Shown one piece after another: positions 57 through 60,590 of a stretch of DNA of 64,000 nucleotides. Source of the DNA: a virus (taxonomy: Duplodnaviria; Heunggongvirae; Uroviricota; Caudoviricetes); the IMG/VR virus record IMGVR_UViG_3300028832_000101, positions 49,380-113,379 of that record; one strand, given 5' to 3'. The translations under genes and the position numbers were made by a program. How positions within the stretch are numbered: position 1 is the stretch's first letter; each line of letters starts with the position of its first letter. The notes under the pieces were generated by a model, which was not told the origin of the DNA, did no database searches, and was given only the letters and a program-made list of their open reading frames with translations.

Positions 57-85
57 TTGACATTATTAAAAATTTTTGTTATAAT
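57..85 (+). promoter_or_regulatory. sigma70-like promoter TTGACA-N17-TATAAT upstream of first early gene
   Basis: ttgaca at 57-62, 17 nt spacer, tataat at 80-85. Confidence 0.5.
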
Positions 86-211
86 CGCGTGCGTTCCTTA
101 TTATATATATGTTTTTTATTAAAAAATATTATAATGTTGACAAAAGAAAATATTTATTTTAATTTATATATAAGATGATATTCATAAATATTTCTAAAAT
201 ATTATCTTTAT

Positions 212-240
212 TTGATAAAAAATTAAAAATATTATATAAT
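212..240 (+). promoter_or_regulatory. sigma70-like promoter TTGATA-N17-TATAAT
   Basis: ttgata 212-217, 17 nt spacer, tataat 235-240; a third weaker candidate (ttgaca 137-142) lies between. Confidence 0.5.
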
Positions 241-297
241 ATAAATATAAAATTATATATTGCAAAAAACTTTTGCTAGAGAGGAGAAGGGACAAGA

Positions 298-1207: not shown

Positions 1208-1208
1208 T

Positions 1209-1655: not shown

Positions 1656-1684
1656 TAGTTGACTCTCTTTCTAGTTAGGAGCTG

Positions 1685-2218: not shown

Positions 2219-2222
2219 TTTT

Positions 2223-2251
2223 TTGATTTTAGAGGAAAATTTTGATATAAT
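2223..2251 (+). promoter_or_regulatory. promoter TTGATT-N17-TATAAT with extended -10 TG
   Basis: ttgatt 2223-2228, tataat 2246-2251. Confidence 0.5.
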
Positions 2252-2284
2252 ATATATGATAAAACTTTAGGAAGGAGAAAAGAA

Positions 2285-4204: not shown

Positions 4205-6515
4205 TGATATTTTAAATGAGTTAAGTACAAACTTTATTGAATATGCTGTTGCGGTTAACACAGATCGTGCTATTCCAGATGCAACTTCTGGGTTAAAACC
4301 AGTAGCCCGTAGATTACTATGGGGAGCTTTTGAAAGAGGCTATACATCAAGTAAACCTCATGTTAAGTCTGCAAAAATAGTTGGAGATGTAATGGGTACT
4401 TACCATCCACATGGTGATTCATCTATTTATGGAGCTCTTGTAAGATTATCTCAACCTTGGGTTATGAGATACCCACTTATAGATTGGCATGGTTCTAATG
4501 GTAATATTGATGGCGATGGTCCTGCAGCGATGCGTTATACAGAATCTAGACTATCAAAATTAGCAGAAGATGGTATGTTAAAAGGAATTAAGAAAAGAAA
4601 TGTAGATTTTATTCCTAACTACTCTGAAGACTGTGAAGAACCAGTTACATTACCTGCTATATTCCCTAACTTATTATGTAATCCAAACACTGGTATTGGT
4701 GTAGCTATGGCTTGTAATTTTGCTCCACATAATTTATGTGAAGTAGCTCAAGCTATATATGATTACATTGATGGTAAAGAACCTATGTTACCAGGTCCAG
4801 ATTTTCCAACAGGTGGATTAATTATTAATATGAATGATATTCCAAATATTATGAAAACAGGACATGGTAGTGTAAAAGTTAGAGCTAAATATAATGTAGA
4901 AAAACAAAATATAGTATATTATGAAATTCCATATGGAACTTCTACTGAAGCACTTATTGCGGAAATCGGTGAAGTAGCTGAAAATGATATTCCTGATATT
5001 ATAAATATTAGAAATGAAAGTAATAAAAAAGGTTTAAGAATTGTTGTTGAGTGCGCAAAAGGAGCTAATCCAGATGCAATAGCAGGTAAATTATTTGCAA
5101 AAACTAATTTACAAAGTAGTTTTTCATATAATCAAGTTGCTTTAATAAATAAAACTCCAACAGAAGTTAACTTAAAAGATTGTATTAAATTATATTTAGA
5201 CCATAATGTAAATTGTTTAATTAAGGAAACTGAATTTGATTTACATGCTGCGGAAGCCCGCCTTGAAATTGTTGAAGGTTTATTAAGAGCATTAGAAGAT
5301 ATTGATAATATTATTGCATTTATTAAAAAATCTGAATCTAGTGCTGCCGCAAAAGAAGGTTTAATTAAAGAATATAAATTTACTGAACCTCAAGCTAAGT
5401 CTATTGTAGCTATGAGATTAGGTTCTCTTGCTAAATTAGAAAAAGTAGAATTAAATGAAGAAAAAAATGGTTTAGTAAAAGATATAGAAGAATTTAATAA
5501 AATTTTATCTTCTAATGAATTACAAGTTAATATAATAAAAGAAAGATTAGAAGAATTAGTTAAAAAATATGGTGATAAAAGAAGAACTGAATTAGCTCAA
5601 ATTGAAATCCCAAAAGAAGATAAAGAAATTGTTGCAGTAATTCCTGAAGATGTTGTTGTAATGGTATCTCAAACAGGTGATGTTAAGCGTATTCCTAAAT
5701 CTAACTTCAGAGCGCAAAGAAGAGGCGGAAAAGGAATTAAGTCAGAGGAAGAAGCAATTTTAACTACAATTAAAACTAATACTATTGATAATTTATTAGT
5801 ATTTACTAATAAAGGAAAAATGTATAAAATATTAGTAGATAAACTTCCTGTTGGAACAAATGCTTCAAAAGGACAAAATGTTGCTAGTTTAGTTACTATG
5901 GATACAGATGAGAAAGTAATAGCCGCTGCAAGTTTAGATAGAGATACTGATGCTGAATATGTAGTATTTGTGACTAAACAAGGTCTATTTAAGAAAACAT
6001 TGCTAAGTGAATATAAGAGTATTAAAAAATCTACTGGAACTCAAGCGATTAAATTAAAAGATGGCGACAGTATATCTAATGTAGTGTTTATGAAAGATGA
6101 AGAATTTATGATATTTACTAAATTAGGTATGGCTATTAGATTTACTACTACTGATATTAATCCAATAGGTAGAGTAACTAGTGGAGTAAAAGGTATTAAC
6201 TTAATTGATGGAGACGAAGTTATAAGTAGTTTTGCTATTACTGATAAGAGTAAAAATATAGCAATTATAGGTAAAAATGGTTATGGAAAGAAAAGTAGTT
6301 TAGATGAGTTCTCTTCTCAAGGTCGAGGAGGTAAAGGACTTAAACTTGGATCTGAAATAGCTGGTGCCGCATTAATAAATGATGAAGATAATTTATTATT
6401 ATTAGGTAAACCTAATAGTATATGTATATCATGTGCGGAAATGCCTGTTCAAGGTAGAGCTACTCTAGGTGTTAAGCTAGCACAAAACGAAATTAAAAAT
6501 GTTGTTATTGTGTAA
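4194..6515 (+). CDS. type IIA topoisomerase DNA breakage-reunion subunit (GyrA/ParC-like)
   Basis: 773 aa; GyrA-like N-terminal region (VARRLLWGAFERG), immediately follows B subunit with 4-codon overlap. Confidence 0.85.
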   Translation: MQNNDILNELSTNFIEYAVAVNTDRAIPDATSGLKPVARRLLWGAFERGYTSSKPHVKSAKIVGDVMGTYHPHGDSSIYGALVRLSQPWVMRYPLIDWHGSNGNIDGDGPAAMRYTESRLSKLAEDGMLKGIKKRNVDFIPNYSEDCEEPVTLPAIFPNLLCNPNTGIGVAMACNFAPHNLCEVAQAIYDYIDGKEPMLPGPDFPTGGLIINMNDIPNIMKTGHGSVKVRAKYNVEKQNIVYYEIPYGTSTEALIAEIGEVAENDIPDIINIRNESNKKGLRIVVECAKGANPDAIAGKLFAKTNLQSSFSYNQVALINKTPTEVNLKDCIKLYLDHNVNCLIKETEFDLHAAEARLEIVEGLLRALEDIDNIIAFIKKSESSAAAKEGLIKEYKFTEPQAKSIVAMRLGSLAKLEKVELNEEKNGLVKDIEEFNKILSSNELQVNIIKERLEELVKKYGDKRRTELAQIEIPKEDKEIVAVIPEDVVVMVSQTGDVKRIPKSNFRAQRRGGKGIKSEEEAILTTIKTNTIDNLLVFTNKGKMYKILVDKLPVGTNASKGQNVASLVTMDTDEKVIAAASLDRDTDAEYVVFVTKQGLFKKTLLSEYKSIKKSTGTQAIKLKDGDSISNVVFMKDEEFMIFTKLGMAIRFTTTDINPIGRVTSGVKGINLIDGDEVISSFAITDKSKNIAIIGKNGYGKKSSLDEFSSQGRGGKGLKLGSEIAGAALINDEDNLLLLGKPNSICISCAEMPVQGRATLGVKLAQNEIKNVVIV

Positions 6516-6611
6516 CAACATTTTTTTATTGCGATTTTAAATTTGAAAATAAAAAAAAATTATTATATAATATATATAGAAAAAATAAAAGGAAAGGAGG
6601 AATTATGTATG

Positions 6612-8531
6612 ATAGATAATAATTTAAGTGAAATAAGACAATTAATAGATAAATTAAATTATTATACTAAATTATATGATGAAGGTCATCCTGAGATTTC
6701 TGATATAGAATGGGATAATTTATATTTTAAATTACAAAAATTAGAAAATCAATATCATACATATTGTGAAGATAGTCCTACTCAAAAAGTTAATTTTCAA
6801 GTAGTAAATAAACTAAATAAAGTAGAACATAATCACCCTATGCTTTCTTTGGATAAAACAAAAGATATGGATGTAATTAAATCTTTTATAGCAGGAAAAG
6901 AATTTATATGTATGGCAAAAATGGACGGGTTGACTTGTTCATTAACATATCAAAATGGACAACTAGTTGCCGCAGAAACTCGCGGAAATGGAATTGTCGG
7001 AGAAGATATTTTACATAATGCTTTACAAGTAAAAAACATTCCTAATAAAATTGATTTTAAAGATAAATTAGTTGTAGATGGAGAAATAATATGCACATAT
7101 AGTGATTTTGAACCATTTGCAGAAGAATATAAAAATCCTAGAAATTTTGCATCTGGTAGTATAAGATTATTAGATAGTAAAGAAAGTTCTAATAGAAGAT
7201 TATCTTTTGTTGCTTGGGATTGTATTGAAGGATATAATGATAAATATTACTTAAGCACAAAATTAGCGTGGTTAAATCTATTAGGATTTACTATCGTCCC
7301 TTGTTTTGCTTATGGTATTCCATATACCACAGTTCATTTTGATGAAGATATAGAAGAATTAAAAAATAGAAGTAAAAGATTAGGGTATCCAATAGATGGC
7401 TTAGTATTTAAATATGATAATTGTGATGAATATAATACCGCAGGTAGAACTGACCATCATTTTAAAGGCGGAATAGCATATAAATTTTATGATGAAGAAT
7501 ATGAAACAACTCTTCAAGATATAGAATGGAGTATTGGAAGAACAGGAATTCTTACTCCTGTTGCTATATTTGACCCTGTGGATATAGATGGAACTGAAGT
7601 TTCAAGAGCAAGTTTACATAATGTAAGTGTTATGACAGAAATATTAGGACAACCTTACAAAGGACAAAAGATAAAAGTATTTAAAGCAAATATGATTATT
7701 CCTCAAATCTCTTGGGCTGAAATTAAACCACTTACTATATCTACATTCAGATGTGAAAAATGTCCATTATGTGGAGAAAGAACCGTTCTTAAAAATAATG
7801 ATGGAGTTATGACATTATATTGTAGTAATCCAGATTGCGAAGGAAAGTTAATAAACCGTTTAGACCACTTTTGTGGTAAAAAAGGTTTAGATATAAAAGG
7901 GCTCTCAAAGGCAACTCTCGAGAAACTTATTGACTGGAGTTGGATTTCTAGTTATATGGATATATATAATTTAGAAAACTTCTCAAACGAATGGAAAAAC
8001 AAAACTGGCTTTGGTGAAAAATCAGTAGAGAGGATCTTGAGCGCCCTTGAACAAAGTAAAAATACAACATTAGATAAAGTAATTGCGGCAGCAGGTATTC
8101 CATTAATTGGAACGAGAGTCGCAAAAGATTTATCTCAATACTATTCTTCATGGGAAGACTTTAGAAAAGAAACAAATTTTGAGAAATATGATGGTATTGG
8201 ACCTGAAATGAATAACTCATTATTAAACTTTGATTATACTGAAATAGATAAAGTAATTCCTTATTTGAATATATCTGCAACAAATAATAATAAAGACAAT
8301 ACATTGCAAGATAAAGTTTTTTGTATAACAGGCAAATTACATATATGGAAGAATAGAGATGAATTAATTAAAAGTATTGAATCTATGGGCGGAAGAGTAG
8401 TAGGCTCTATGAGTAGTAAAGTTGACTATTTAGTTAATAATGATATTAATTCAACTTCTGCAAAAAATAATGCGGCTAAACAAGCAGGTATTCCAATTAT
8501 AACAGAAGAAGAATTGCAATCTATGATTTAA
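6612..8531 (+). CDS. ligA: NAD-dependent DNA ligase
   Basis: LigA adenylation region, four-Cys zinc finger (CEKCPLCG...CSNPDC), HhH and BRCT-like C-terminus; ATG at 6612 with RBS aaggaaaggagg (track start 6543 is an in-frame extension). Confidence 0.8.
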   Translation: MDNNLSEIRQLIDKLNYYTKLYDEGHPEISDIEWDNLYFKLQKLENQYHTYCEDSPTQKVNFQVVNKLNKVEHNHPMLSLDKTKDMDVIKSFIAGKEFICMAKMDGLTCSLTYQNGQLVAAETRGNGIVGEDILHNALQVKNIPNKIDFKDKLVVDGEIICTYSDFEPFAEEYKNPRNFASGSIRLLDSKESSNRRLSFVAWDCIEGYNDKYYLSTKLAWLNLLGFTIVPCFAYGIPYTTVHFDEDIEELKNRSKRLGYPIDGLVFKYDNCDEYNTAGRTDHHFKGGIAYKFYDEEYETTLQDIEWSIGRTGILTPVAIFDPVDIDGTEVSRASLHNVSVMTEILGQPYKGQKIKVFKANMIIPQISWAEIKPLTISTFRCEKCPLCGERTVLKNNDGVMTLYCSNPDCEGKLINRLDHFCGKKGLDIKGLSKATLEKLIDWSWISSYMDIYNLENFSNEWKNKTGFGEKSVERILSALEQSKNTTLDKVIAAAGIPLIGTRVAKDLSQYYSSWEDFRKETNFEKYDGIGPEMNNSLLNFDYTEIDKVIPYLNISATNNNKDNTLQDKVFCITGKLHIWKNRDELIKSIESMGGRVVGSMSSKVDYLVNNDINSTSAKNNAAKQAGIPIITEEELQSMI

Positions 8532-8570
8532 TACTTTGATGTTTTAAAAATTTTCGTATATAATATAAAT

Positions 8571-8768
8571 ATGAAAGATAAAGAAAAAAAGAAAAAAATT
8601 AAATCAATAGCTCAACAAATTTCACAATTGGAAAATAAGTGTCGTATAGATTCGGTTAACCAACTTAAGTATATGGCAGAAATGCAACAATTAATTGAAA
8701 ATCTTTCATTAGAAGAGTTATTGGAGATTGATGAATATATAATTGAAAGCAAATGTTTGAAAAAATAA
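8571..8768 (+). CDS. hypothetical small protein
   Basis: ORF track, own promoter-like TATAAT upstream. Confidence 0.4.
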   Translation: MKDKEKKKKIKSIAQQISQLENKCRIDSVNQLKYMAEMQQLIENLSLEELLEIDEYIIESKCLKK

Positions 8769-8830
8769 AAATTTTTAGTTATAATATTCATATAAAATAA
8801 AATAAGAAAAAAGAAGAGGAGAAAAAGATT

Positions 8831-35220: not shown

Positions 35221-35718
35221 ATGATATTACTATCTTTAGATTTATCAACAAAGAGCTCTGGATGAGCAATCTTTGAAGATGGTTTTTTAAAAGATTCAGG
35301 ATGTATAGCATCTTCATCTACTGATTTACTAAAAAGAATTAATATAATGATAGATGGGATTAAAACAATAGTAGAAAAATATAATCCTAATAAAGTAATT
35401 GCAGAAGAAGTTAGACCTGAAAATGGTATGCAAAATTTAAAAACACATAGAGCGTTAATGTGGTTACAAGGCGGAATTGCTTTAATGCTATATGATTATA
35501 ATAAAAAATTAGAAATGGAATTAATATATCCTAGTTCATGGCGTGCGGCAATTGGTATTAAAACTGGTCGCGGCATTAAAAGAACTACTTTAAAAGAAAA
35601 AGATATTCAATTTGTAAAAGAAAATTATAATTTAGATGTTAATGATGATGAGGCGGATGCTATTTGTATTGGTTATTCACAATGTCATGATATAGAAACA
35701 GAAATAAATTGGGACTAA
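35221..35718 (+). CDS. RuvC-like Holliday junction resolvase (one in-frame TGA)
   Basis: LSLDLSTKSSGWAIF and DEADAICIGY catalytic motifs. Confidence 0.6.
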
Positions 35719-35742
35719 AATTAAAAATTTTTAAAAGATATG

Positions 35743-35772
35743 AACACTTTATCATAAAAAGTGTTTTTTTAA
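35743..35772 (+). terminator. intrinsic terminator aacacttt-loop-aaagtgtt + T-run
   Basis: 8 bp stem, tttttt follows. Confidence 0.5.
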
Positions 35773-35801
35773 TTTTCCTGCCAAATTTTAAGCAAATAAA
35801 A

Positions 35802-35838
35802 AAAGCACACTATTAAAAGTGTGCTTTATTTTTTTTTA
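35802..35838. terminator. bidirectional intrinsic terminator agcacact-attaaa-agtgtgct flanked by A-run and 12 nt T-run, at the convergence point of the two modules
   Basis: perfect inverted repeat; stop of minus-strand gene 35836-38 abuts it. Confidence 0.65.
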
Positions 35839-44171: not shown

Positions 44172-44765
44172 CTATTTATTTTCTTTATGATTTTCGTCTA
44201 TTGCTTGGTAAATATGTGGTGGAACTATAATATCATGTGCTTTAGCCCATTTATTAAATTCACTAGTCATATACCAATCTCCATGCAAACTTACAAAATA
44301 TGTTTCAGCAAGTTTTAAAATTGTATCTATATTTTCAGGTTGTTGTTCTAAAATCATTAATAATTGAATTCTTAAAGTGTCTTTTCTAGTCTCTTGTGCA
44401 TTTTCAATTAAAAATTTTACATCATCTTTAAACATATCAATACGTTTATCAGAATCTTCTTTGTTTTGTTTTACGATTTCTCTTGTCTCTTGAAGAGCTT
44501 TAGTGAAATCTTCTCTTGCTTTATGTTCATATTTAATTATTTCTGCATGAGTATATTTAGCTTGTTTATCAACATAAAAAGAAACAAGTAATAAAACTAT
44601 TCCTAGAAATGCAAAAATACTATATGTTAATTCTGGAGAAGTATTTAAAACTTTGACTACAAAAGTCGCAGAAACTCCAACAGCGGCAAGTACTCCTGCA
44701 ACTCTTGCCCATATTGTTTTTATATCATTTCAAGGAGTTTTTATTTTTTCATCTTCGTTGTTCAT
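44172..44765 (-). CDS. putative holin-like membrane protein, 197 aa, two TM helices
   Basis: N-terminal hydrophobic segments VAGVLAAVGVSATFVV and IFAFLGIVLLLVSFYV; RBS ggaggagg; one in-frame TGA. Confidence 0.45.
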
Positions 44766-44858: not shown

Positions 44859-44887
44859 AAGATAGATAGTTAAAATCTATCTATCTT
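44859..44887 (-). terminator. intrinsic terminator aagatagatag-ttaaaat-ctatctatctt + T-run (minus strand)
   Basis: 11 bp stem; contains stop of gene 44886-46643. Confidence 0.6.
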
Positions 44888-46643
44888 AACTTCAACCATT
44901 TTCAGCTAAAGTTGTTCATTCAGAATAAGTTTTACATTTATTTTGTTGTGTAGAACTTAATCCAATATAAGTTAGTGTCTTAGTTCCAGTATAGTCGCTT
45001 GTTAAAGTTGCTAAAGAAGCTAAAATATTATGCAAACTTGTATCACTAAGTTTAGTACAACTACTAAACATATATTGACATGTTTTTGCTTTTGGCATAT
45101 TTATTACTGGAACACTATCTAATTTACTACAACTTTTAAACATAGAATTAAAATTAGTACAAATTGGAGTTAAAATTGTACTTGGAATATCTGTTATTTC
45201 GGAACAAGAATTAAACATATAACTACAATTTGTGCATTTAGATAAATCTAAACTACTAGGTATTGATATTAATTTACTACAATAATTAAACATATAACTA
45301 CAATTTGTAGCTTTAGATAAATCTAAATTACTATAAATATTAGTTAACGCCCTACAATAATAGAACATATTTGATAATGAACCAGTACAATTAGATGTAT
45401 TTATTCCACTTGGAATAGTAGTTAATAATTGACAGCTATAAAACATATAAGAAGCTTGTGTTAAACTAGGTAAGTTTATTGTAGAAAGAGTCGTTAATTT
45501 TGGGCAATAATTAAATAAACTGTTAGCATTAGTACAATTTGGAAGATTTAAAGGGATAGACATTTGTTCTAAATTTGAACAACTTGAAAACATCCCACTA
45601 ACAGATGTAGTTGTACTTGGAATAGTTAATGAATTACTATCTATTTGTTTTAATGCTGAACAACCTAAAAACATATTACTAAAATCAGTACCAGAAGATG
45701 TATTTATATTTTTAACTTGTTGTAATTTAGTACAATTATAAAACATTTGAGAAACAATTGTTGCAGATGAACAATCAATATTTTCAACTTTTATAAGATT
45801 ATTACAATTATAAAACATTTGAGAAACATTTGTGGCGGTAGAAAGATTAATATTATTTACTTCTTCTAAAGCAGTACATCCATAACAAAATTGTCTTCCT
45901 GATGTACTTTGACATAAAGGCATATTTATATTAGATAATTTTTTTAAATTAGTATAATTTTTAAATCATGTTGAAATAGTTGAAGTAACACTTGCAAGAT
46001 TATATCCATCTATTTCTTCTACTGTTGTTGGGAAAAATTTAATTCCTGAAGTTAAACCTGATAAATTTATATTATATACTTTTTTTATATTAGAACAATT
46101 ATAAAACATAGAACTCACATCATTATAATTAGTTATCTGAGACAAATTAATATCTTTAATAATTTCTAAGTTTGTACAATTTTGATACATATAAGAACAT
46201 CTAACTGCTTGAGAAAAATCAAGAGCAGGAGTTTCTTTTAAACCAGTACATCCACTAAACATGCCATAAAAATCTCTTCCTTTTGAAGTATCTAACGTTC
46301 CTGCAGGAATTTTTTCCAAGCTTTGACATTTATTAAACATATAATTAAAAGTTATTCCATTTGAAGTATTTATAACTGGAATATATTTTAAATTTTTACA
46401 ATTAGTAAATAAATAAGAAAAGTCATCAAGAGTGCTATAATTACAATTTTTTATAAAAGATGCATCTTCAAATAAAGAATTTCCAAATTTTATTTTATTA
46501 GAAATAGCAGAAGGAGTAGATGAAGTATTGATAATAGTATCTGCCATATCTCTAGGTTTATATACAGCATTCAAATTGTTAGTTTTAATTCTTAATGCAT
46601 CAGCAATATCTGTTAAACTATTTTCATCTATTAAAACATTCAT
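44886..46643 (-). CDS. BspA-type leucine-rich repeat (LRR_5-like) Cys-rich protein, about 585 aa
   Basis: repeated NMFxxCxxLxxI units; track ORFs 44916-45923 and 45966-46643 bridged by TGA; RBS aaggaggt. Confidence 0.6.
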
Positions 46644-46658
46644 ATTTTAAACCTCCTT

Positions 46659-47786
46659 CTAATATCCTGTAGTCCAGCCCATGGCTTCTAATGCCGCCCA
46701 ATTTGATAAAGATGTACATGTAGTAGCTTGACTTTGAGAAAGTCCTATATGAGCTAAAGTTTTAGTTCCTGTGTAATTAGTTGCTGTTGAAAGTGTTTGT
46801 AAAATATTATTTAGACTAGTGCTTGTAAGATTTGGACATCCAGAAAATATGTCCATTAAAGAATATTGATTTACAACATTTGGAATACTAAAAGCAGGAA
46901 TATCTCTAAGCGCATCGCAATAAGCAAACATATCTTCTATATCTTCTGCAGCGGGAATCGTAATAGAGCTAACTGACACAAGATTATAACAATCTAGAAA
47001 TGAACAATTAAATCCAGTTGCTTTTGGAGCATTTAAAGATGGAATTGAAGTTAAACCATGGCAAGATACACAAATATTATCCAAATTAATCGCCTCTGGT
47101 AAACTTCAATTAGGGAAAGTAATTAAACCGCATCCTTGAAAAGTGCCATCAAAATCTTGTCCTTTAGAAACATTGTAAACAGGAATAGTTGTTAAATTAC
47201 TACATCCTGCAAACATTCATCGAAAGCTTGTTCCGTTAGAAAGATCAAAATTACTTGGAGAAGGAAGAGTAGTTAATTGAGAACAGTTTGCAAACATATT
47301 TGCAAAAATAGTTCCTTTTCCAACTCTCATTCCTTCAAAAGTTGTTAAATTATTACAAGCCTGAAACATGGTTCCAAAATTAGTACCATTTCCTGTTGGT
47401 AAAGAATTTCCTTGTGCTAAAGTTATTGTTTCTAGATTACTGCAACCTGAAAACATACCACTAAAATTTAAACCTGCATCAGCAGGAGTTGTACTTAAAT
47501 AAGGGAAAAAATTTGTTCCTACTCCAGTATTGGAAAACATGCCACTAAAGTCAGTTCTATTTCCAATAGGATTATTTGAAACCATATTAAACATATAAGC
47601 CATTGCAGAAAGGTCGCTTCCTGAATTCCCAAAACTTATAGTATTAATATCTGCTTGGGAAGAAGTTGAACTAATTGCATCTGCCATTTCTGCAGGTTTT
47701 AATTTTAAATATGGATTTCCTTTTACTGTTCTAATTGCATTTGCAATATTTTTTAAAGCAATTTCATTTACTCAAACATTTGCCAT
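46659..47786 (-). CDS. second BspA-type LRR protein, about 375 aa
   Basis: track ORFs 46659-47084 and 47217-47687 merge via TGA; ATG 47784-86 overlaps stop of upstream collar gene. Confidence 0.55.
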
Positions 47787-48430
47787 TAATATTCAACCTC
47801 ATTCCCATTTATATTGCTATTAAATAAATTATTTATATACGCGCAACTATAAGCATCTGTTGTACTTGTAGAAAAATCATCTACTACATTTGAGAATGTT
47901 GCAACAGTATTTTTCGCTTTAATTAAATAATTTACTACAATATATGGTTGTAAGTTTGTATGAGCTTCATCTCCTCCAGTATTATTTGATGTTACTGTTG
48001 CTGATACATGATCTGGACCATCTGCAGGTGGATATTGTCCTGGGTTAGATGTAAAATTTTGATCATCAACAGTTCCTAAATAAGTACTATGAGAATGACT
48101 AGGTATTTGAGAAACAGTTAAAGTAACTTCTTTTACTCCTCCTATTTCTCCAAGCGTATCAAATTCTGTCTGAGTTAAATCTAATCCAACTCCAACTCTA
48201 CCTTTTTTATTAGGTATATTAAATGTAGTACTTCCATCTCCAGCTCCATAAGTTGTTCCTATTACATCAAATAATTCATTATATTCAGTTCTACTTATTG
48301 CACTACCATCACATATTAATCAACCAGTAGGAATAGAAGAACCATAAAATTCAATCCCAGTTCCAATAGCCATACTATCAAGAGCTTTTATTGCAAGATC
48401 TACTCATTGTCCATTGTATTTAAATTTCAT
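47786..48430 (-). CDS. phage tail collar domain protein, 214 aa
   Basis: IPTGWLICDGSAISRTEYNELFDVIGTTYGAGDGSTTFNIPNKKGR...SHSHS...NLQPYIVVNYLIKA; both in-frame TGA fall on conserved Trp. Confidence 0.7.
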
Positions 48431-48444: not shown

Positions 48445-51400
48445 CTATAATGATGATGATGCTTTTGTATATTCTAATACTATAAATATTTTATCAAAGG
48501 TGTCTGTAAAAGTAGTTACAGAAGTTCCTAGATTAATATATATTTTAAGATTATCTATATCAAAAGAACATTTATCTCTTGTAGAATTATAATATCCTAA
48601 TTTAGCATATCCAACAGGAAGGTCTTCTTCAGCTGGATATCTTAAATATGAATGAGTATAATCTATAAAAATCATATCTGCCCCAAGATTTGATATATCA
48701 ACCTCATTATTTGAAGATGTAATAATATCGTTTGGATCATATTCAACACATATTCTATAAATAGGTTTTCCATCAATTCATATTTTATTAGTTAAAGTTT
48801 CAGTAGTAGAGAATACATCTGGTTCACTACCTCCACCACCACTTGCAGAAGATACTTCATTTGGATTAATCCATAAAATTGCGTTTCCAGTTGGTTGAGT
48901 AGTAGATATTGAAATTTCATTATTGTCAGATGCAGCAATATGTAAAGAATTTGCTGTTCTTGTTATATAATACATTTCATTGCGTTTTGTTGTATTATTA
49001 AATATATATGCAAGAGCAGGTTTATTTAAAATCATATTATCTCAATCCCCTATAATCAAAGAGTTTGCAGGGAATGTAAAAGTTGTAGATTGAGAAGTTT
49101 GTGTATCTGTATAAGTAATTGTTATTGGAGATTTTACTATTGTAGCAGAAGAATTAAATAATTGTTCATTATTAGTTACAGAATCAACTACATTTATTCT
49201 AAGATTTAAATCTATGGCGTCTACAGGGGATTCATCTGTAAATATAGTAGTATTTGTAACATTTGAACCATTATATGTGAACATTTTATATCCATAATCA
49301 CTAACTACAATAAATGTTATATAAGGTTCATCTGGATCTGCAGTAAAATTATAACAACAAATTGCAGATTTTGCTCCAAAATCTATATATCTAGAATCTC
49401 CAACTCTTATGCGGAAGCTTGCGCCTCCACCTCCGACAACATAATAATGAATTCCTCTAGGAAAATCTACAGGTCCATAAGCACCATTAATAGTTTCAAA
49501 AAGAATTCCATCTGTATTAGAAATAACATTATTTGCATCTATATTGATTCCAGTACCAGCAGTATAACTAATATCTCCAAGTTCAATTTTGTTTTTAGTT
49601 ATAGTTCCAGTTACCCAAGTTGTAGGATCATTTCCTGATAAAATAAATTCATAATAATAAGTATCTCCAGCAGTCTCATTTAAAATTCCTAAATTTCCAA
49701 TAATAGTAAATACCATTTTGTCTGTCGTATCTCCTGAAGCCTCTCCATGAGAATAAGGTACATAATAATTTTCTGACTTTTGTAAAGTAGTATTTATATT
49801 CGAATATTGTAAATATAATTGTTCATTCATACTAGCAGATTGTAACGAAGCTAAATTAGAATAAACTGTTCCTTTATTATCAGTTGCATTTATAGTAAAA
49901 GTTCCATTAACAGCATCTATAGATAAAATTGGCATAAAAATTGCTTCATCTTTATGTGTACTAGTTGTCTTTGTATAAGTTTTTGTACTACTTGCCACAG
50001 TTAAATTTACAGAAGTAAAGACATCTTGCCCTACACTTGGAGCCTGATATGGTAAAGTAGTTGAAAATATTGCAGTGTTATTTGTACTTATATTTAATAA
50101 AGGAATATATAAAAATACATTTGTACTTTTTTGTCATTTACCAATAACTTGGTATCCTTGAGAAACTAATGTAGCAATTTCTGTTCCAGTATAATTAGTT
50201 GCATTATTACTATCTAAAGTAACAATAGCAGTAGGTTTAATATCATAATCAGTTCCGAAATCAGCTTGAGTCATTGCGGAAGCCGCAGTTACATGACCTT
50301 CTGCATTAGTAGTTATTTTATATAAATCACTTGTAAATGCACTACCTTTTGCAGTTGCATGGTCATATGCAATTTTACCTCTATCTCCACGATATGCAGT
50401 TGATTCAGTTTCTCCTAAAGCCAAATCTGAAGCTACTACAACATATATAGAACCTGACCATCTATAAGATTTATTAGTAGATAAATCTACATATATTTTA
50501 CCTGATTCTGGAGTAATCTCTGTTGTATAAGTAGATTCTTTATAGAATTTACCATCTGTTAAATTATAATAACCTTCAATAATATCATCTACATAAGCAG
50601 GTAATTGCGAGCTAGGAACCTTTCCAGAACTATCAAGAGTAGCAATTCCATTAGCTTGACCTAATTTTGCATTGTCTGCAGGAGTAAAACCTAATGCAGC
50701 AATTATTGAATTTGAGCTTACTTCATTCCAATATTCATATTCTAAACTATCTTTTGATAAATAATAAATTTTATTATAGTCGCCAACGGAAAATAATAAA
50801 TTTGCTATTCCCATATTACCATAATCTGTATTTAAAAAATTATAAGTCATATAACCTAATTTATCAGTTTTTAAGAAAGCTCCATTTTTTAATATACAAG
50901 TTGCCTCTCCATCAAAACCATCAAATTCAGGTAAAGCAATTCTATCTTTCCATTCTTGGAAAATATAATTACTATTATTTTCAATATAACTCTTTATAGG
51001 TAAAGTATTATCTTTATAGAAAGTGAATTTATTTATTGTTCCAAAAATAGTTGTACCTGGACAATATTCTCCCCAAGAGTCTTCATACTCTAAAAAATTA
51101 ATACCTCTTACATCAATATTTACATTACAAACATCTGGATAAACATAATATGTTTTAATTTTATCTGGGTCAAAAATAATAATTTCATTATCTTCATTAT
51201 CACCATCTTTATAAGTTTCAGAATTTCCATTACTATCAATGACAGTCCATCCACTATTTGATAAATTTAAAATTGCATAACTATTAGCAGGGATTGCATA
51301 AATAGGAACAACTACATCAGTTCCATAGCTTGTCTTTCCTTTAAATAACCAAAAACGAGTAATATTTTGTCTACCTTCATAAACAAAAGTAATTCCTCAT

Positions 51401-52020
51401 CTAATAGAAGAATCCACATCATTATCAACATATGCAGAAGTAGTCCATTCAATAGAGGTTGGATTTCCTATCTCATTAAATTCTCCAGCATTAATTCTTA
51501 CATTCATTATTTCTTTTCAATTAGATATATATTTTCCTCTAATATTGGCATTAGAACTATTTCCTTGTAAACTATGTAATTCATTTATGTTTTGTTTTAA
51601 ATTTGAAATTGTATATAGACCAGTTGCAGTTGTATCTTCTGAACGTCTATTAGGATTTATAATCTCAGGTAGATCTGCTAAACTAGATACATGACCGCCA
51701 TATATAATTGAATCATATAAATTATATATATCTTCAAAACTAATTTTTTCTTGAATTGCATTAGTTAAAAAATATATCATATAATTTATTTCGCCTTTGT
51801 CATAATAATTAGCTAAATTACTTACCATTCTAGTAATATAATTACTACCATTATCTAACTCTGCAACATCAGTAGGCATAATTTGAATTCGTTGCTCTGA
51901 ATCTAAATCAAGATAAATTAATTTTTTGTCTGTTATAAAAAATATATTTCCTTTTTCCTTATCATAAGTTGCTAATTCATTATAAGCAATTCTATAAGGT
52001 TTAAAAATATCTTGTGCCAT
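48445..52020 (-). CDS. very large structural protein, about 1191 aa (tail fibre/host-specificity-like)
   Basis: track ORFs 48445-48675, 48778-49035, 49042-49998, 50134-50850, 51517-52074 all one frame with TGA at every junction checked; ATG 52018-20 with RBS aaaggagg. Confidence 0.5.
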
Positions 52021-52094
52021 TTTTAATCCTCCTTTTATATCTATGCGGTGGCCGGTTAAAAGATTCTTAGACAAGGCTCCCGCAATATTTTTTA

Positions 52095-52161: not shown

Positions 52162-52181
52162 AGATAGTATCTCTACTATCT
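52162..52181 (-). terminator. intrinsic terminator agatagtatctctactatct + T-run (minus strand)
   Basis: contains stop of GT2 gene. Confidence 0.55.
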
Positions 52182-53255
52182 ATAATCATCTTTTGTGCAC
52201 AAGTTTATTCTAATATTATTTTGTTTATATTTTTTTGGTATTTTCTTTTGTATCTTTTTTAAATCTTCTTCTTCATATATTGATGCATTTAAATCTTTAA
52301 CATATTGATCTATTGTATATTCTTCAGCTTCACCATCATATTGAATTTCATTTAAGAAAGCTTTAAAATCCTCTACTGGAATTATTCTTTTTATTTTAGG
52401 TAAATAGCATAAATGATAAAATTTATAACAATAGTATTTAGCTTGGTCTATAAAGAATTGTTTTTTAGATTTTACTATCTCTTTTAATACATCATAAAAA
52501 TCTAATAATCTATAACAAAAGAAATAGATTTCATCTTCTTCTTTAATATTATCTAATCCACCTTGTTCTAAAACATAAATTGAACTATCTACCATTCCGC
52601 AAATACTTCTATCTATTAAGAATTGTTTATCATTACCACGTACTAATGAATCTTTATGGTATGCTCAAAAATAAGTTGGAGTATTTATTACACCAAGAGA
52701 CTCTCCTTTATAAAAACTTTTCATTTCAAATAACATATTAAATCCAACATCTTCATTAGCTCTAAAAGGCGGAAACCATATATTATTATCTTCAATAAAA
52801 TTTCTTCTATATAATCTTGCAAATACATGAGAGTCAACTTCACCATTGATAGCGCCAAATTCACAATTCTCATTTTCTTCTAATATATCAGACCTTAAAA
52901 CAATTAATTGTTTATTATCTTCCATTATTCCTAACATTTGCTCTAATGATTTAGGTAATATTAAATAATCATCAGCATCAACAAACATTATATAATCATT
53001 TTTAGTATTTTTCATACCCTGATTTCTAGCTTCACCAGGCCCGCAATTCTTATCTAATTTAATTTCTTTTATATCCATAAAATTAGAAAATAATTTAATA
53101 GTATCTTGATAATCTCCTTCAGGACAACAATCATTAACAATAGTAACATCTACTTTATCAATAATAGATTGTATTGCTATTGAATGTAAAGTTTTTTCTA
53201 TTGTCTTATGTGCTTTATAGGCGGGAATTATTATATCTATTTTTTTATCTTTCAT
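52176..53255 (-). CDS. family 2 glycosyltransferase embedded in tail module, about 359 aa
   Basis: IIIPAYKAHKTIEKTLHSIAIQS, VNDCCPEG, FVDADDYL; track ORFs 52176-52595 and 52665-53255 joined by TGA. Confidence 0.65.
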
Positions 53256-53683: not shown

Positions 53684-54472
53684 TTATGCCGTTCTATTTC
53701 AAATATATACACAAACATAAGGTTCAATATTATCTGTATTACCTACATTTCCGCTAGGTGCTCCAGTAGTTCCAGCCGCAACAGTGTGAGTATGTGAACT
53801 TGTATGACTATGATTAAAACTATGATTATGAACCATTGTATGCGTATGATCTATTGAGTGTGTATGCCCATTTATACTATGAGTATGATTATATGTATGG
53901 CCATGTGAAAAATTCCACCATACATATCCCCAGAAGTCTGCATTTGTACCATCATGAGCATAACGTCTATTACCATCAGCCCAACCAATATAGATACCCG
54001 CAGCATCTGAATCACTTTGTCCATCTACGAACATTAATTGATCTGGTAATTCATCTCCTAGATTTCAAGATAAACCAGGGTCTGCAGCATCTAATCCTGG
54101 ATCTCTATCATCTGTATCAATAGATGCAGTTGATATTGTAGGACTTGTTGAACTTGAAGTTCCTGCAGCCGCTTGACTAACAGTAGGACTTGTACTACCT
54201 GATGTAATACTTATTGAGTGTGTATGCGCGGGAATGCTATAAGAACCATAACTAGTTCCTGCAGCATAAGTATGAGATGAATCTAATTGACCTGCGCCAA
54301 TTAATAGTCTACCTGCTCCATATGCAACCCATGTTCCACCAAATATAGAACCTGGATTTGTACTTGATGTAGAAATATATATACTTCCAATAGGATAAAA
54401 ATTATCTACATTTCAAATTTTTCCTGATATATGACTGTCTCCAGCCACAATTAAATCTTTTATAAATGCCAT
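53684..54472 (-). CDS. His-rich collar-domain tail protein paralog 1 (262 aa)
   Basis: N-terminus MAFIKDLIVAGD...YPIGSIYISTSSTNPGSIFGGTW, HTHSINGHTHSIDHTHT repeats, C-terminus EPYVCVYIWNRTA; RBS aggaggtg. Confidence 0.65.
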
Positions 54473-54484
54473 CTTCTACACCTC

Positions 54485-55276
54485 CTATGCTGTCCTTTTC
54501 CACATGTATACTCCGATACATGGTTGTAAGTTTCCTGAAGTTCCAGCTCCAGTAGATCCAGAAGTTCCTGTAAAAGTATGAGTGTGCGCAAAAGTATGAG
54601 TATGTGCTTCTATTGAATGTGTATGAGCACTTCCATGACTATGACTTGCGCTATGATGGTGACTGTATGAATGTCCATGATTTGCACTATGTGAGTGTCC
54701 CATCGCATATCTTATTTTTCTCCAAGAGTTACTTGATGTACCACTTGTTTTAAATTGATGGTAATCCGCAAAAGTAAACCAAATTCTTGAAGAACTATGT
54801 GAACCTTTTTGCGAACAGAAAAATCTTGTTGGAGAAGCAGCATCACCAGCTAATTCAGTACTACTTGTTGCTGAACTGTTTCCTGATGATGTACTTGAAT
54901 TTCCAGTATGTTCAGTCGTAGAACTTGAATTAAATGCATCTTTATTTGCTATTCCCATATCACCTGTGAGTGTCTCTGCAGCAGCCTCACTTGAAGTTGC
55001 AGAAATACTATGAGTATGGTCTTGTATATCTAAGGAACCGCCTTGTTCATTTGCGGCAATAGTTTTTGTTTTACTTTGCCCATCAGTTCCAGTCCCAACT
55101 CCCATTAATACTCTTCCAGTACTAAATACTTCTCAAGTACCACCAAAAATATCTCCTGGATTAGTTGAATTAGTTGATATATAAATAGAACCAATAGGAT
55201 AAATACTATCTACGAAATGCGCTTTTCCCGCAATTCTTAAATCTCCTTTTACTATTAAATCTTTAAAAAATGCCAT
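54485..55276 (-). CDS. His-rich collar-domain tail protein paralog 2 (263 aa)
   Basis: MAFFKDLIVKGD...YPIGSIYISTNSTNPGDIFGGT; GHSHSANHGHSYSHHHSASHSHGSAHTHSIEAHTHTFAHTHT; ends LQPCIGVYMWKRTA. Confidence 0.65.
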
Positions 55277-55292
55277 ATAAACCCCCTCTTTC

Positions 55293-56123
55293 CTAAGCCG
55301 TTCTCTTCCACATATATACACCTTGATAAGGTTGTAAATTATTTGCTGTGGTTTGGTATGTAATTGAAGGATGACCTGTAGAGCCTGAAATGGTATGACT
55401 ATGCGCGGCAATAGTATGGCTATGAGAGAATGTATGACTATGTGCAGCAACACTATGTGTATGTTCAGGAATTCTATGGTAATGACTAGGTACTGTATGA
55501 GAATGGGAAGGTAAACTATGATTATGAGACATATTAATATGCATATTTGCCCAACCATTTGTTGATGAACCACTGTCTTTAAATCTTCGATTACTACTCC
55601 ACTTAACAGCCGCTCTATCTCCACTGTTACTATAATAACACATATTATTACTTAAGTTATTTTGATGAGTCATGAAGATATTTCTTTGGTGGTCACCACT
55701 ATTACCACCTGCTCCAGACCAATTACCTGTTCCACCTGAAGTTCCGCCAGTATTCCCACTAGTTCCTCCACCAGTTAAGCCTTCAGTATTATCACCTGTA
55801 TTACCTGTCGTAGTTGAAGTAGTTGTATTATTTGCGGAAGTCATTGCCGCAAAACTATGAGTGTGTGTACCTATATTATAACTACCCCCTGTTGTTCCTC
55901 CAGTAAATGTTTTTGTAACACTATCTTTATCTGTATAACTACCTGCACCGATCAAAGAACGACCTTGTCCAAATGCTTCTCAAGTTCCTCCAAAAAGTTG
56001 ACTTGGATTTGTAGAGGCAGTAGACATATATATAGAACCTATTGGATACATACTTTCCAAAACGTTTATTTTTCCTATAAATCTGGCGTCTCCGCTGACA
56101 AATAAATCTTTTAAAATCGCCAT
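55293..56123 (-). CDS. His-rich collar-domain tail protein paralog 3 (276 aa)
   Basis: MAILKDLFVSGD...YPIGSIYMSTASTNP; HNHSLPSHSHTVPSHYHRIPEHTHSVAAHSHTFSHSHTIAAHSHT; ends LQPYQGVYMWKRTA. Confidence 0.65.
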
Positions 56124-58811: not shown

Positions 58812-60590
58812 TTATTCCTCCTTAAATTCATATGCATACATATTATTTGCGTTATCTACAAAACCGGCAGTGTCATATAATTGTTTTACATCTGCGGCAG
58901 ATAATGCAGTTGCATATATACGGAAGTCAGATAAACTACCATAATTTTTTGTATTTCAGCCTGTTCCTGTATAAGTGTTTCCAATTGAATTATTTAATAA
59001 TGGAATAGTAGTATCTGTATAAGTATTTTTTGTTAAAGTTTGTTCAACTCCATTTAAATATCATTTTGCCGTTCCTTTATTAAATACATATACTGCATGA
59101 TATCAAGTTCCTGCTGTTAATAATGAACCTCCTGCAGTATATTTACTTCTATAAGCTCATAATCCACAACCTTCACAATTTGTTGCTATTCATAAACCAG
59201 CCCCGGCAGGATTGTTATAAGGAGACATTATGCAACAATAACCACCATTTGAAGCATTGGGTTTTACTCAAAAAGAAATAGTTAATTCAGCCATATCAGG
59301 TATAGATAAATCAGTTTTTAAACCATCAATTCCTGTTGCACAGCTACTTCCCCCATTATATCTTGGTGCGGTAGAGTCAAAATTCAACGTTCCAACTTTT
59401 GTAGCATTATATCCATTTCCGCTTACATCAGTAAGTATCATATTATCAAAACCTAATTTAGAATACATAACATCACTTGAATTTGGTATTCAATCTGTTG
59501 CAACCTCTCCAATTTCAATTTTAGGATGTCTATACTTTATTGTTCCAGTAGTATCTCTCATAAAGAAACTTACATTTAAACCAGCTATATCATAATTTGT
59601 AACAGTTACAGTACAACTATATTTTACTCATCCAGTTGTAACTGCTGTAGGGATAGTTTTTCCGCCATATCAATCTAATCACTGATTGCTTCCCCCTGTT
59701 GTAGTATTTCTTGTAACAGACAGTTCAAAACCAACTCAAGGATTTGTAGTACCAAAGGTAAGTGCTTCTGTAATTTTATATTCCATAGAAAAAGTCAATT
59801 TTTTATTTTTAAAATCAGTTAATCCTGCAGTATCCATTGTTTGTGAAAAACTTATTCCAGATGCTTGAAGAGTATCAGAATGAAAAGTTACTTCATCTCC
59901 ATCAAAAGTATAAATTCCTGCATTAGTTTTATTAGACCAATCACTATTTTTAATATAATTTTTACCAGCTCCCATCTCCTCCAATTTATAATGACAAACC
60001 AATCCCTTTGAAATTTCTTTTATTTGTTTACGAGATAGGCATTCATCATATACACGTAAATCATTCATTACTCCTGTAATGATATTATTATTTTCTCCTA
60101 TATGAAAATCGGTAATTAAATACCCGCCTAATCCAGTATCTGTGTATAATAGACTTCCATCTACATAGGTGTAGAGATTTGCACCATTATAACTTACACA
60201 ACAATGATGTCAAGTTCCTTTTTGGCTTTCTTCAATTAATACTCTTGTCGCCTGCGTAACCCCAAAAGGTGAATTATTATGAAAACTACATGCTCTTGTA
60301 GATTGTGTTGCTTCAAATCTAAATTGAGCAGCAGCAGTTCCATCTGCTTGTTTACAAGTAAATCCAAGAGAATCGGCTCAATCTGATGTACAGCTATCTA
60401 CTTTTAATCAAAAACATATTGTGAAATTATCTAACCTAGATAAATTAGTAAAAGTAATTCTAGGAGATAAACTTAAACCCTTTCCGATTTTTCCTCCATT
60501 AGAATATGTAGGAGTTCCTGATACTGATAAAAAATCTATACCTTGATTTTTTAAGTTACCATTAAGAGGCAACCATACTCGTAAAGCCAT
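58812..60590 (-). CDS. tandem LamG/concanavalin-A-like lectin domain protein, about 592 aa
   Basis: MALRVWLPLNGN..., MNDLRVYDECLSRKQIKEI and C-terminal LSDFRIYATALSAADVKQLY are LamG hallmark motifs; track ORFs 59736-60068 and 60408-60590 joined by TGA. Confidence 0.6.

Follow-up and report, generated by a model that had tools for sequence, protein, structure and literature searches.

Two paralogous leucine-rich repeat (LRR) proteins, gA and gB, are encoded within the tail-fibre module of this phage and share a putative transcription unit with its fibre gene; on balance we regard them as probable accessory host-adhesion (receptor-binding) subunits of the tail, made late in infection. The window, by which we mean the whole 64-kb stretch of DNA that was analysed, carries the two genes of a preliminary description side by side on the minus strand (Table 1), provided that TGA is read as tryptophan, a condition absent from that description. 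Because each gene contains three in-frame TGA codons (45966-45968, 44916-44918 and 44892-44894 in gA; 47772-47774, 47217-47219 and 47106-47108 in gB), both are intact only with TGA as a sense codon. Their paralogy is evident from a phmmer comparison (E 2.5e-43).

Table 1. Genes, protein parts and signals at and around the two LRR genes (coordinates within the window).
Feature	Position	Strand	Remarks
gA, LRR protein, 585 aa	44886..46643	(-)	TGA = Trp; stop TAA at 44886-44888
gA N-terminal module, residues 1-45	46509..46643	(-)	motif L..IADALR.K......KP..MAD.I
gA C-terminal cap, residues 529-585	44889..45059	(-)	2 TGA at conserved Trp columns
Tandem duplication within gA	45204..45370		period 75 nt, 2.2 copies, 81% matches; Tandem Repeats Finder
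Second tandem duplication within gA	45702-45854		period 72 nt; Tandem Repeats Finder
gB, LRR paralogue, 375 aa	46659..47786	(-)	TGA = Trp; stop TAG at 46659-46661
gB N-terminal module, residues 1-45	47652..47786	(-)	non-repeat; weak PHROG hints only
gB C-terminal cap, residues 317-375	46662..46838	(-)	...SLNNIL..L..ATNYTGTKTL..IGLS..QA..C..LSNW.ALEAMGWTTGY
gC, tail-collar-domain protein, 214 aa	47786..48430	(-)	2 in-frame TGA
gD, tail-fibre-like, ~1200 aa (1209)	48445..52074	(-)	5 in-frame TGA; directly upstream of gC
gK, family-2 glycosyltransferase-like	52176..53255	(-)	first gene of putative transcription unit
Shine-Dalgarno AAGGAGG	46652..46658	(-)	strong; 8 nt before gA ATG; directly after gB TAG
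Intrinsic-terminator-like hairpin	44859..44887	(-)	11-bp stem, then T run; starts at gA stop

Each protein begins with an N-terminal module and ends with a C-terminal cap, between which lie about 19 DUF285/PARCEL repeats in gA and about 10 partly degenerate ones in gB, whose cap ends in GWTTGY. The two had been described as consisting almost entirely of repeats of about 22 residues with regularly spaced cysteines. They are indeed made up mainly of tandem repeats, but the N-terminal module (about 45 aa) and the cap (about 57-59 aa) of each are non-repeat, and the period is in fact 24-27 residues with a mean of about 25, as the 75- and 72-nt duplications within gA also indicate; the 75-nt duplication is a recent gain of a repeat unit. 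The core x-M/L-F-x-x-C-x-x-L-x-x-I recurs in both proteins, with a cysteine in nearly all repeats but not in the first ones of gB, which are degenerate. Between gA and gB the N-terminal modules are 43% identical and the caps 52% identical, and neither kind of module has a significant match in Pfam or PHROGs. The N-terminal motif is also present in 16 of the 120 best gB matches.

To judge from profile scores, the family that fits both proteins best is DUF285/PARCEL, a sister of the LRR_5 family to which they had first been assigned. Pfam DUF285 (PF03382, gathering cut-off 25 bits) scores 176.5 bits over five stretches of gA and 38.3 bits in gB, and at an E value of 1.9e-52 the gA repeats are far beyond chance. 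Both proteins also pass the 30-bit cut-off of NCBIfam TIGR02167 (PARCEL repeat-containing surface protein), a model of a 26-residue repeat, with 65.8 bits for gA and 40.7 bits for gB. Pfam LRR_5 (PF13306), the profile proposed earlier as a check, reaches 29.3 bits in gB, barely over its gathering cut-off of 27.7 bits; in gA no LRR_5 match was returned at E ≤ 0.01.

The BspA-like part of that assignment holds for the fold: gA and gB are predicted to be LRR solenoids of the BspA-like kind, gB by way of a homologue and its sequence profile. Structures were modelled for the TGA-free fragment 227-575 of gA and for P0137, a full-length homologue that is 39% identical to gB over its full length (alignment A1). 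The AF2 model of the gA fragment has a pLDDT of 92.2 and a pTM of 0.90, and that of P0137 (pLDDT 91.2) consists of helices, an LRR region and a helical cap, the N-terminal module being helical at low confidence and the cap helical with a pLDDT of 97-99. Foldseek places the BspA-type LRR_5 crystal structures 4gt6, 4fs7 and 4h09 first for both models, with TpLRR also among the top matches, so that structure prediction, which had been suggested as a check, returned an LRR solenoid. Among tail spikes the usual repeat fold is the beta-helix, and a fibre or spike of that kind would be in keeping with the modest TM-scores of the models to LRR crystal structures (0.3-0.5). Such scores are, however, expected, because solenoid curvature differs, and TM-scores to viral LRR models in BFVD are 0.55-0.71. 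All significant sequence and fold matches in the PDB are LRR: the profile search against PDB sequences returned LRR proteins only, the top 50 Foldseek matches of the gA model are all LRR, and no beta-helix stands among the top 50 for either gA or P0137. A beta-helix, the outcome named at the outset as one that would overturn the LRR reading, is therefore scarcely credible here and was rejected.

Features of the wider sequence show that the phage reads TGA as tryptophan in its late genes. With code 11, open reading frames cover 72% of the window, a share that rises to 92% with code 4, and for the region 36-64 kb the difference is 58% versus 95%. When 143 family members are aligned, the gA codon at 44892-44894 falls in a column that is tryptophan in all 143, and the one at 44916-44918 in a column with 58 tryptophans and 49 tyrosines. 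The 64-kb window encodes no tRNA; a tRNA with a UCA anticodon, a candidate suppressor tRNA, lies outside it, on a JGI contig that bears an identical GyrB-like gene and a stretch of tail genes 100% identical to the window. Two public contigs match the window at 100% identity throughout the 20.6 kb of tail genes that were compared. A megablast search of the phage collection with positions 40-52 kb gave no match. Read with table 11, the gA/gB region yields fragments of 225, 335, 156 and 141 aa, and it is as these same fragments (225, 335, 156 and 141 aa) that the two genes are called on the identical ENA and JGI contigs. Standard gene callers split such genes in stop-codon-recoded phages, leaving their tail modules under-annotated in public databases.

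The tail-module location given in the preliminary description is confirmed by PHROG matches to collar, fibre and host-specificity proteins around gA and gB, as are the collar domain of the upstream gene and the overlap of its stop with the gB start. The product of that gene, gC, matches Phage Tail Collar (PF07484, E 8.6e-21) and Gp10_C (E 9.4e-10) in Pfam and the tail protein phrog_9116 (E 1.9e-52) in PHROGs, and the junction sequence joins its TAA and the gB ATG as TAATG. A spacer of 14 nt containing AGGAGGAGG separates gC from gD, which matches phrog_38707 and the minor tail protein phrog_1446. At the head of the unit, gK is identified by GtrB-like PHROGs and by Glycos_transf_2 on an identical contig, and upstream of it are a terminator-like hairpin (53339-53317) and then a promoter-like site (53308-53280). 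The hairpin at the gA stop marks the other end of the transcription unit, and the whole looks like one operon of glycosyltransferase, fibre, collar-domain protein, gB, gA and terminator.

Right behind fibre and collar genes is also where chaperone genes classically lie, as for T4 gp38 and P2 gpG, and gA and gB might be tail-fibre assembly factors resembling the Tfa/gp38 class, which would bind nascent fibre or collar, perhaps through the conserved cap, and would present no receptor-binding surface. We consider this quite unlikely: the proteins are large (375-585 aa) and come as two paralogues per phage, searches of Pfam and PHROGs linked them to none of the known Tfa or gp38 families, and widely varying repeat numbers together with recent duplications fit a diversifying ligand-binding function better.

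A hydropathy scan found no signal peptide, lipobox or membrane segment in gA or gB, the maximum Kyte-Doolittle 19-residue means being 0.72 and 1.09, and because there is no export signal the virion is the obvious route to the cell surface. Proteins without a signal peptide would equally stay in the cytoplasm until lysis, as expected of non-virion LRR effectors. Such effectors, expressed late, would work within the infected cell, for example by attaching to a host protein in takeover or anti-defence, or would be set free by lysis and stick to surfaces such as mucus, debris or neighbouring cells. The LRR is a general-purpose binding scaffold, and DUF285 genes are numerous in the giant virus AaV and occur outside tail modules, as in Butyrivibrio phage Bo-Finn, where one lies by the small terminase gene. 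Effectors nonetheless seem to us rather unlikely, since gA and gB are translationally coupled to the collar-domain gene in a putative transcription unit with the fibre gene, and members of the family lie repeatedly beside or near tail-fibre genes, one of them being fused to baseplate protein I. The Bo-Finn gene by the small terminase also counts against a tail-adhesin reading.

It is very improbable that gA and gB are moron genes for a BspA surface adhesin of bacterial type, exported to the host cell surface as a lysogenic-conversion factor. The NCBI family name includes the term “surface protein”, in bacteria DUF285 repeats belong to lipoproteins or surface proteins (PMC2996958), and one homologue adjoins an integrase. 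Against this stand the result of the hydropathy scan, the need for TGA suppression, by which translation would be limited to the late, recoded phase, and the location of both genes inside a fibre transcription unit in a 64-kb window that holds no integrase. On the grounds of export, suppression and location, the exported adhesin was rejected.

Used alone as a query, the gB cap retrieved 1,115 cluster representatives from clusters defined at 50% identity, 244 of them at E ≤ 1e-10, and among the 150 matches listed it lies at the protein C-terminus or no more than 3 residues from it. Family members are 83-1288 aa long, and their repeat number varies widely. The five homologue contexts that were sampled all belong to phages or prophages, and three of the five adjoin tail genes. 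Homologues with the same cap are located in late modules of phages. One follows directly on a Phage_fiber_rpt gene with a stop/start overlap in a prophage, and a second has fibre genes upstream of it and an endolysin gene downstream. A third has SPbeta-type tail genes (YomU/V/X) upstream, is immediately preceded by an unannotated 687-aa gene and comes before a CHAP lysin, and a fourth adjoins an integrase at the end of a late module. The contig of the first prophage has a cluster member labelled Saccharibacteria. The C-terminus is the most conserved part of the gA/gB family, which counts against an adhesin, as receptor-binding proteins usually have a conserved N-terminus and a variable C-terminus.

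Peptide-pattern searches of IMG/VR with gB, gC and full-length gI found no related loci, probably because the patterns included tryptophan, partly TGA-encoded, or because the relatives are too divergent. With a tryptophan-free 100-aa piece of gI, five relatives (L014-L018) were found in IMG/VR, all related TGA-recoded phages in which the baseplate genes gI-gJ are conserved. An LRR gene is present in the upstream flank of one of the five (L018), within about 8.5-10 kb, a span that may miss more distant LRR genes, and in the remaining four that place is taken by other genes. Pairs of LRR genes in tandem are seen again in further phages. The slot occupied by gA and gB is cassette-like, varying among relatives that share a conserved baseplate.

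The proposed working of gA and gB as accessory tail adhesins, from their presence in the virion and docking by the N-terminus to the binding of a ligand and its kind, is inferred and runs as follows. Both proteins would be produced late in infection by a phage in which TGA encodes tryptophan in late genes, and their shared helical N-terminal module would dock them onto the complex of fibre, collar or baseplate. Binding of a host-surface ligand would fall to the variable surface of the LRR, with the conserved helical cap sealing the core of the solenoid, and two paralogues of unequal length may confer two binding specificities. A protein receptor had been suggested at first; since LRRs are able to bind glycans and lipids as well as proteins, the ligand could be any of these. 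It counts against the adhesin reading that receptor-binding proteins of the canonical type are trimeric fibres or spikes, while LRR solenoids are usually monomers, and that literature searches turned up only annotations and one proposal, but no phage receptor-binding protein of LRR fold whose structure or function has been determined.

More tentatively, proteins with the GW(TTGY) cap may form a widespread, unnamed class of phage host-recognition proteins, probably built as a monomeric LRR solenoid rather than as a trimeric fibre or spike. Such a class would number 1,115 or more clusters defined at 50% identity and would combine lineage-specific N-terminal docking modules with a universal C-terminal cap. 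It would serve phages of very different kinds, among them TGA-recoded Agate-like gut phages, SPbeta-like phages, small temperate phages and the Saccharibacteria-labelled prophage contig. If these proteins are tail adhesins, the LRR would add a scaffold that is neither fibre nor spike to the known receptor-binding repertoire of phages, one that is modular, expandable repeat by repeat and already in use for protein engineering (repebodies). Their recognition could also improve host prediction and the detection of receptor-binding proteins in uncultured gut phages.

At the level of the whole genome rather than of the LRR proteins, the phage resembles the TGA-recoded “Agate” phages (Borges et al., bioRxiv 10.1101/2021.08.26.457843), a likeness of genome features. 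It extends to a genome of about 136 kb from a gut metagenome, clearly early replication genes (298-23649) in standard code, in-frame TGA that is heaviest in structural genes, a GC-skew switch and a UCA-anticodon tRNA on a related contig.

Among bacterial proteins, the described members of PARCEL/DUF285 are surface lipoproteins or membrane proteins, and the name PARCEL derives from a dyad symmetry of the DNA, often with opposite-strand ORFs (Roske et al. 2010, PMC2996958). gA and gB share with this family tandem 25-26-residue repeats with an MFxxCxxL core and a patchy distribution linked to mobile elements, but differ in lacking an export signal and in their added N-terminal module and GW(TTGY) cap. 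No such dyad symmetry was detected in the DNA of the two genes: inverted 7-9-mers within 150 nt, scored as exact k-mers, were at the level of synonymous-codon and codon-permutation shuffles, and no opposite-strand ORF of at least 80 aa is present in 44886-47786. The closest solved folds and PDB sequence relatives are the BspA-type LRR_5 structures (4gt6, 4fs7, 4h09; TpLRR 6mlx), which are likewise LRR solenoids with a Cys/Phe core, but share a sequence identity of 15-19% and are bacterial surface proteins, none of them viral.

The view that LRR adhesin repeats are uncommon as receptor-binding modules of phages was overstated, given dozens of examples in BFVD, the C-cap clusters and a Klebsiella baseplate protein I fusion; phage LRR proteins are already widely annotated, and gA and gB add to a known kind. 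The BFVD entries with the gA fold come from phages and giant viruses and are named “BspA family LRR surface protein”. Examples occur in Aeromonas phages D3 and LAh10, Klebsiella phage N1M2, AaV and uncultured Myoviridae, and further ones are Sphingomonas phage PAU gp103 and Vibrio phage pir03 ORF200/287. Found by tblastn and phage-encoded like gA and gB, they agree in fold but are mostly much larger, multi-domain and from jumbo phages; functional characterisation of those named was not found in the literature.

A precedent in genomic setting is “tail protein I” (YP_009882546.1) of the Klebsiella P2-like prophage ST16-OXA48phi5.4, which has DUF285 repeats in a baseplate/tail-fibre locus and whose gene adjoins one for a tail collar fibre. 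In that protein (1008 aa, about 25% identity) baseplate protein I carries the LRR as a C-terminal fusion, whereas gA and gB are separate polypeptides with an N-terminal module of their own. A second parallel is offered by Goslar (Chimalliviridae), whose DUF7941 “fibre cloud” proteins bear LRR or beta-helix C-terminal domains, host recognition being proposed for the LRR-bearing virion proteins (bioRxiv 10.64898/2026.04.21.720040). Although DUF7941, the attachment module, is said to be exclusive to chimalliviruses, the proposed logic is the same as the one suggested for gA and gB: an N-terminal module would attach the protein to the virion, and LRR or carbohydrate-binding domains behind it would recognise the host.

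The preliminary description had placed two leucine-rich-repeat (LRR) protein genes, gA and gB, side by side within the tail module; both genes are real, but their dependence on TGA recoding had been overlooked, each frame containing three in-frame TGA codons. With translation table 11 the interval 44886-47786 yields four minus-strand ORFs of 335, 225, 141 and 156 aa, and translation of either gene is continuous save for stop codons, the internal ones all being TGA. The last two TGA codons of gA fall within the C-terminal cap, the conserved non-repeat end of this protein family, in columns that hold Trp in 143/143 members (44892-44894) and in 58/143 (44916-44918; Tyr in 49), and gB uses TGG at the same two positions. 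Judged from sequence, TGA is a Trp codon in gA and gB. As both genes need TGA suppression, their translation can occur only late, once recoding is under way. Public gene calls on two contigs identical to the window (L003, L004) split the pair into fragments of 225, 335, 156 and 141 aa, and in the JGI record TGA is read through in some neighbors, such as the 214-aa collar gene, and not in gA or gB, so that database annotation of the tail genes of recoded phages is inconsistent.

Features of the LRR genes and of the surrounding phage genome (window positions, except for the tRNA)
Feature	Position	Strand	Description
Replication genes	298-23649	+	
Strand convergence	~35718-35836		
Late genes	35836-63472	-	
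197-aa protein gene	44172-44765	-	right after the LRR operon's terminator
11-bp hairpin, then T run	begins at gA stop	-	sequence read
gA	44886-46643	-	585 aa with TGA as Trp; true stop TAA
gA in-frame TGA	45966-45968, 44916-44918, 44892-44894	-	codon scan
AAGGAGG	8 nt upstream of gA ATG	-	sequence read
gB	46659-47786	-	375 aa with TGA as Trp; true stop TAG
gB in-frame TGA	47772-47774, 47217-47219, 47106-47108	-	codon scan
gC	47786-48430	-	next upstream of gB; Collar and Gp10_C domains
gK	52176-53255	-	family-2 glycosyltransferase (GtrB-like); heads putative transcription unit of fiber, collar and LRR genes
His-rich paralogues	53684-56123	-	three in tandem, upstream of gK
592-aa gene	58812-60590	-	virion-structural-like
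UCA-anticodon tRNA	499-594 of contig L001		96 nt

The sense use of TGA as Trp lies mainly in the late genes of this phage. Coverage of the whole window by ORFs of 100 aa or longer is 72% with code 11 versus 92% with code 4, and between 36 and 64 kb it is 58% versus 95%. The plus-strand replication genes, whose products are GyrB/GyrA-like proteins, an NAD-dependent ligase, DnaB, a RecJ-like protein and PolIII-alpha, contain no in-frame TGA, one ORF with an ambiguous start excepted; plus-strand genes at 23.7-35.7 kb hold 0-4 apiece and the minus-strand late genes as many as 14 per gene. The window's strongest preference for the recoded codon is that of the 592-aa gene, with 14 in-frame TGA versus 2 TGG. 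Where the plus- and minus-strand gene blocks converge the GC skew flips sign, consistent with a terminus of replication or a replichore boundary like that reported in Agate phages.

In a comparison of 20.6 kb of tail genes, the window matches two contigs, one from ENA (137,249 bp) and one from JGI (136,118 bp), at 100% identity, and its GyrB-like gene is present on both. There is no tRNA in the window. A UCA-anticodon tRNA is carried by L001 (JGI contig Ga0400026_0000021) about 9.5 kb upstream of the GyrB-like gene, within a tRNA cluster and adjoining a tRNA-Trp(CCA); labelled "SeC" by ARAGORN, it is a candidate suppressor of TGA. At 96 nt it is unusually long, which suggests a long variable arm and makes it less than obvious which amino acid it carries.

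The core repeat motif, x-[ML]-[FY]-x-x-C-x-x-[LI], has 16 strict copies in gA and 5 in gB, and a relaxed scan gives 17 and 10; counting degenerate copies missed by the scan, we estimate ~19 repeats in gA. Nearly every repeat has one core Cys, of totals of 30 in gA and 12 in gB. The copies are spaced 24-27 residues apart and gA contains two young DNA duplications whose units measure 75 and 72 nt (80-81% identity, Tandem Repeats Finder), so the period is ~25 residues rather than the 22 first reported. The DNA dyad symmetry that is a trait of PARCEL repeats was not detectable here in counts of exact inverted 7-9-mers.

The assignment to the BspA/LRR_5 type stands as far as the fold is concerned, but DUF285/PARCEL is the better family label. 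gA matches Pfam DUF285 (PF03382) with an E value of 1.9e-52, and gB scores 38.3 bits against DUF285 and 29.3 bits against LRR_5 (cut-off 27.7). Both match NCBIfam TIGR02167, "PARCEL repeat-containing surface protein," and phrog_9915, with gA also matching phrog_22899, the function of both PHROGs being unknown. A sequence search of the PDB with gA on its own finds 4fs7, and with the family profile 38 chains, all LRR proteins, with 4fs7 and 4gt6 on top. Structure was modelled for the TGA-free fragment 227-575 of gA (74-sequence alignment; pLDDT 92.2, pTM 0.90), and the fold of gB was read through P0137, a full-length homologue with which it shares 39% identity in alignment A1 (pLDDT 91.2). For both models the BspA-type crystal structures 4gt6, 4fs7 and 4h09 rank first in Foldseek against the PDB, TpLRR being 5th for gA and 14th for P0137. 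The top 50 are LRR proteins throughout, and the beta-helix fiber fold that had been named as the alternative does not appear among them.

Nor are the proteins almost entirely repeat, as had been supposed. The P0137 model begins with three short low-confidence helices, followed by the solenoid and a helical C-terminal cap (pLDDT 97-99). With gA as query, thousands of generic DUF285 proteins are retrieved at 28-40% identity. The search with gB tells more, 110 of its 120 best matches ending in a near-invariant cap (...SL.NIL..L..ATSYTGTKTLKYIGLS..QATTCTTLSNW.A..AGWTTGY). The N-terminal motif of gA and gB, L..IA.AIR.K.G....P..MA.AI, is shared by 16 of these 120, the remaining family members having N-terminal regions of other types. 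The 59-residue gB cap alone retrieves 1,115 cluster representatives (50% identity) from a search space of 1.84 billion, and 244 of them reach E<=1e-10; in the 150 matches listed it lies at the C-terminus or within 3 residues of it, in proteins of 83-1288 aa. Neither the cap nor the ~45-aa N-terminal module is represented in Pfam or PHROGs. No other gene in the window belongs to the family; between gA and gB the N-terminal modules share 43% identity and the caps 52%. The two proteins belong not to a rarity, as first thought, but to a large phage-borne family, already annotated and functionally uncharacterized.

The reported overlap with the collar gene is confirmed, the gC stop TAA overlapping the gB ATG in TAATG. 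Farther upstream of gC are gD, a fiber-like gene of ~1200 aa, and gK, with a terminator-like hairpin and a sigma-70-like promoter match (11/12) in front of it; downstream of the pair are host-specificity-like and baseplate-like genes. gK may glycosylate fibers or modify the host surface. The His-rich (HxHxH...) paralogues match tail-fiber and short-fiber-tip PHROGs and, together with gC, gD, gG and the LRR pair, would give this phage an unusually rich putative host-recognition set. The 197-aa protein, by eye two hydrophobic helices and then a charged helical region, is strongly conserved in the IMG/VR relative L014 (E 1.6e-81) and may be a late protein of holin-like or membrane-associated type.

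Cap-bearing homologues were found in phage or prophage context in all five sampled. P0214 has a stop/start overlap with a preceding Phage_fiber_rpt gene, with an integrase near, in a prophage bordered by host genes (its cluster includes a sequence labelled Saccharibacteria). P0132, on a 122-kb contig, has fiber genes upstream, an endolysin downstream and a second LRR paralogue adjacent. P0161 follows SPbeta-type tail genes (YomU/V/X), directly behind an unannotated 687-aa gene, and is followed by a CHAP lysin; P0139 closes a late module and adjoins an integrase, and P0175 has a glycosyltransferase and another DUF285 gene nearby. Five IMG/VR relatives (L014-L018; 105-131 kb, GC mostly low at 0.26-0.33, late genes with in-frame TGA) keep the baseplate genes gI-gJ, and the 8-10 kb upstream of these is wholly different among them. 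Positions 1-8800 of these loci include 761-1478-aa proteins without a match to the window. Only L018 has a gA/gB homologue in this stretch (514 aa, ending AAGWTY); it adjoins a gK-like glycosyltransferase gene, and in L013 a GT2 gene also lies near LRR genes. The variable stretch looks like a swappable, hypervariable host-range cassette.

Neither gA nor gB contains a hydrophobic segment fit for a signal peptide or anchor. Given this, the late-only TGA suppression, the operon structure and the repeated placement beside fiber genes, the pair is best read as accessory tail-attached adhesins, for which we infer virion incorporation, a docking partner and a ligand. Roles as non-virion effectors or as fiber-assembly factors are less probable, and a role as exported moron adhesins, which the missing export segment disfavors, is improbable. 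As tail adhesins, gA and gB would dock through their N-terminal helices on fiber, collar or baseplate and bind a host-surface ligand with the LRR face, the cap closing the solenoid.

In its genome-level features the phage fits the TGA-recoded "Agate" type of gut phage, resembling the Agate phages of Borges et al. in late-gene TGA recoding, ~136 kb size, GC-skew switch and, here on a related contig, a UCA-anticodon tRNA. DUF285/PARCEL repeats are variable surface-protein modules of Mollicutes and other microbes, tied to mobile elements (PMC2996958); annotations of them exist for Vibrio phage pir03 (PMC7765460) and other jumbo phages, and for the giant virus AaV. BFVD holds many same-fold phage proteins under BspA-type names (TM-scores 0.55-0.71). 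We found no demonstration in the literature of receptor binding by an LRR protein of this kind, and LRR-bearing virion proteins of phage Goslar have been put forward as host-recognition elements (2026 preprint, bioRxiv 10.64898/2026.04.21.720040). The cap-bearing LRR family may be a general non-fiber class of phage receptor-binding protein. Among cultured phages, a P2-like Klebsiella prophage has DUF285 repeats as the C-terminus of its baseplate protein I, beside its collar fiber, whereas the DUF285 gene of Butyrivibrio phage Bo-Finn adjoins the small terminase instead.
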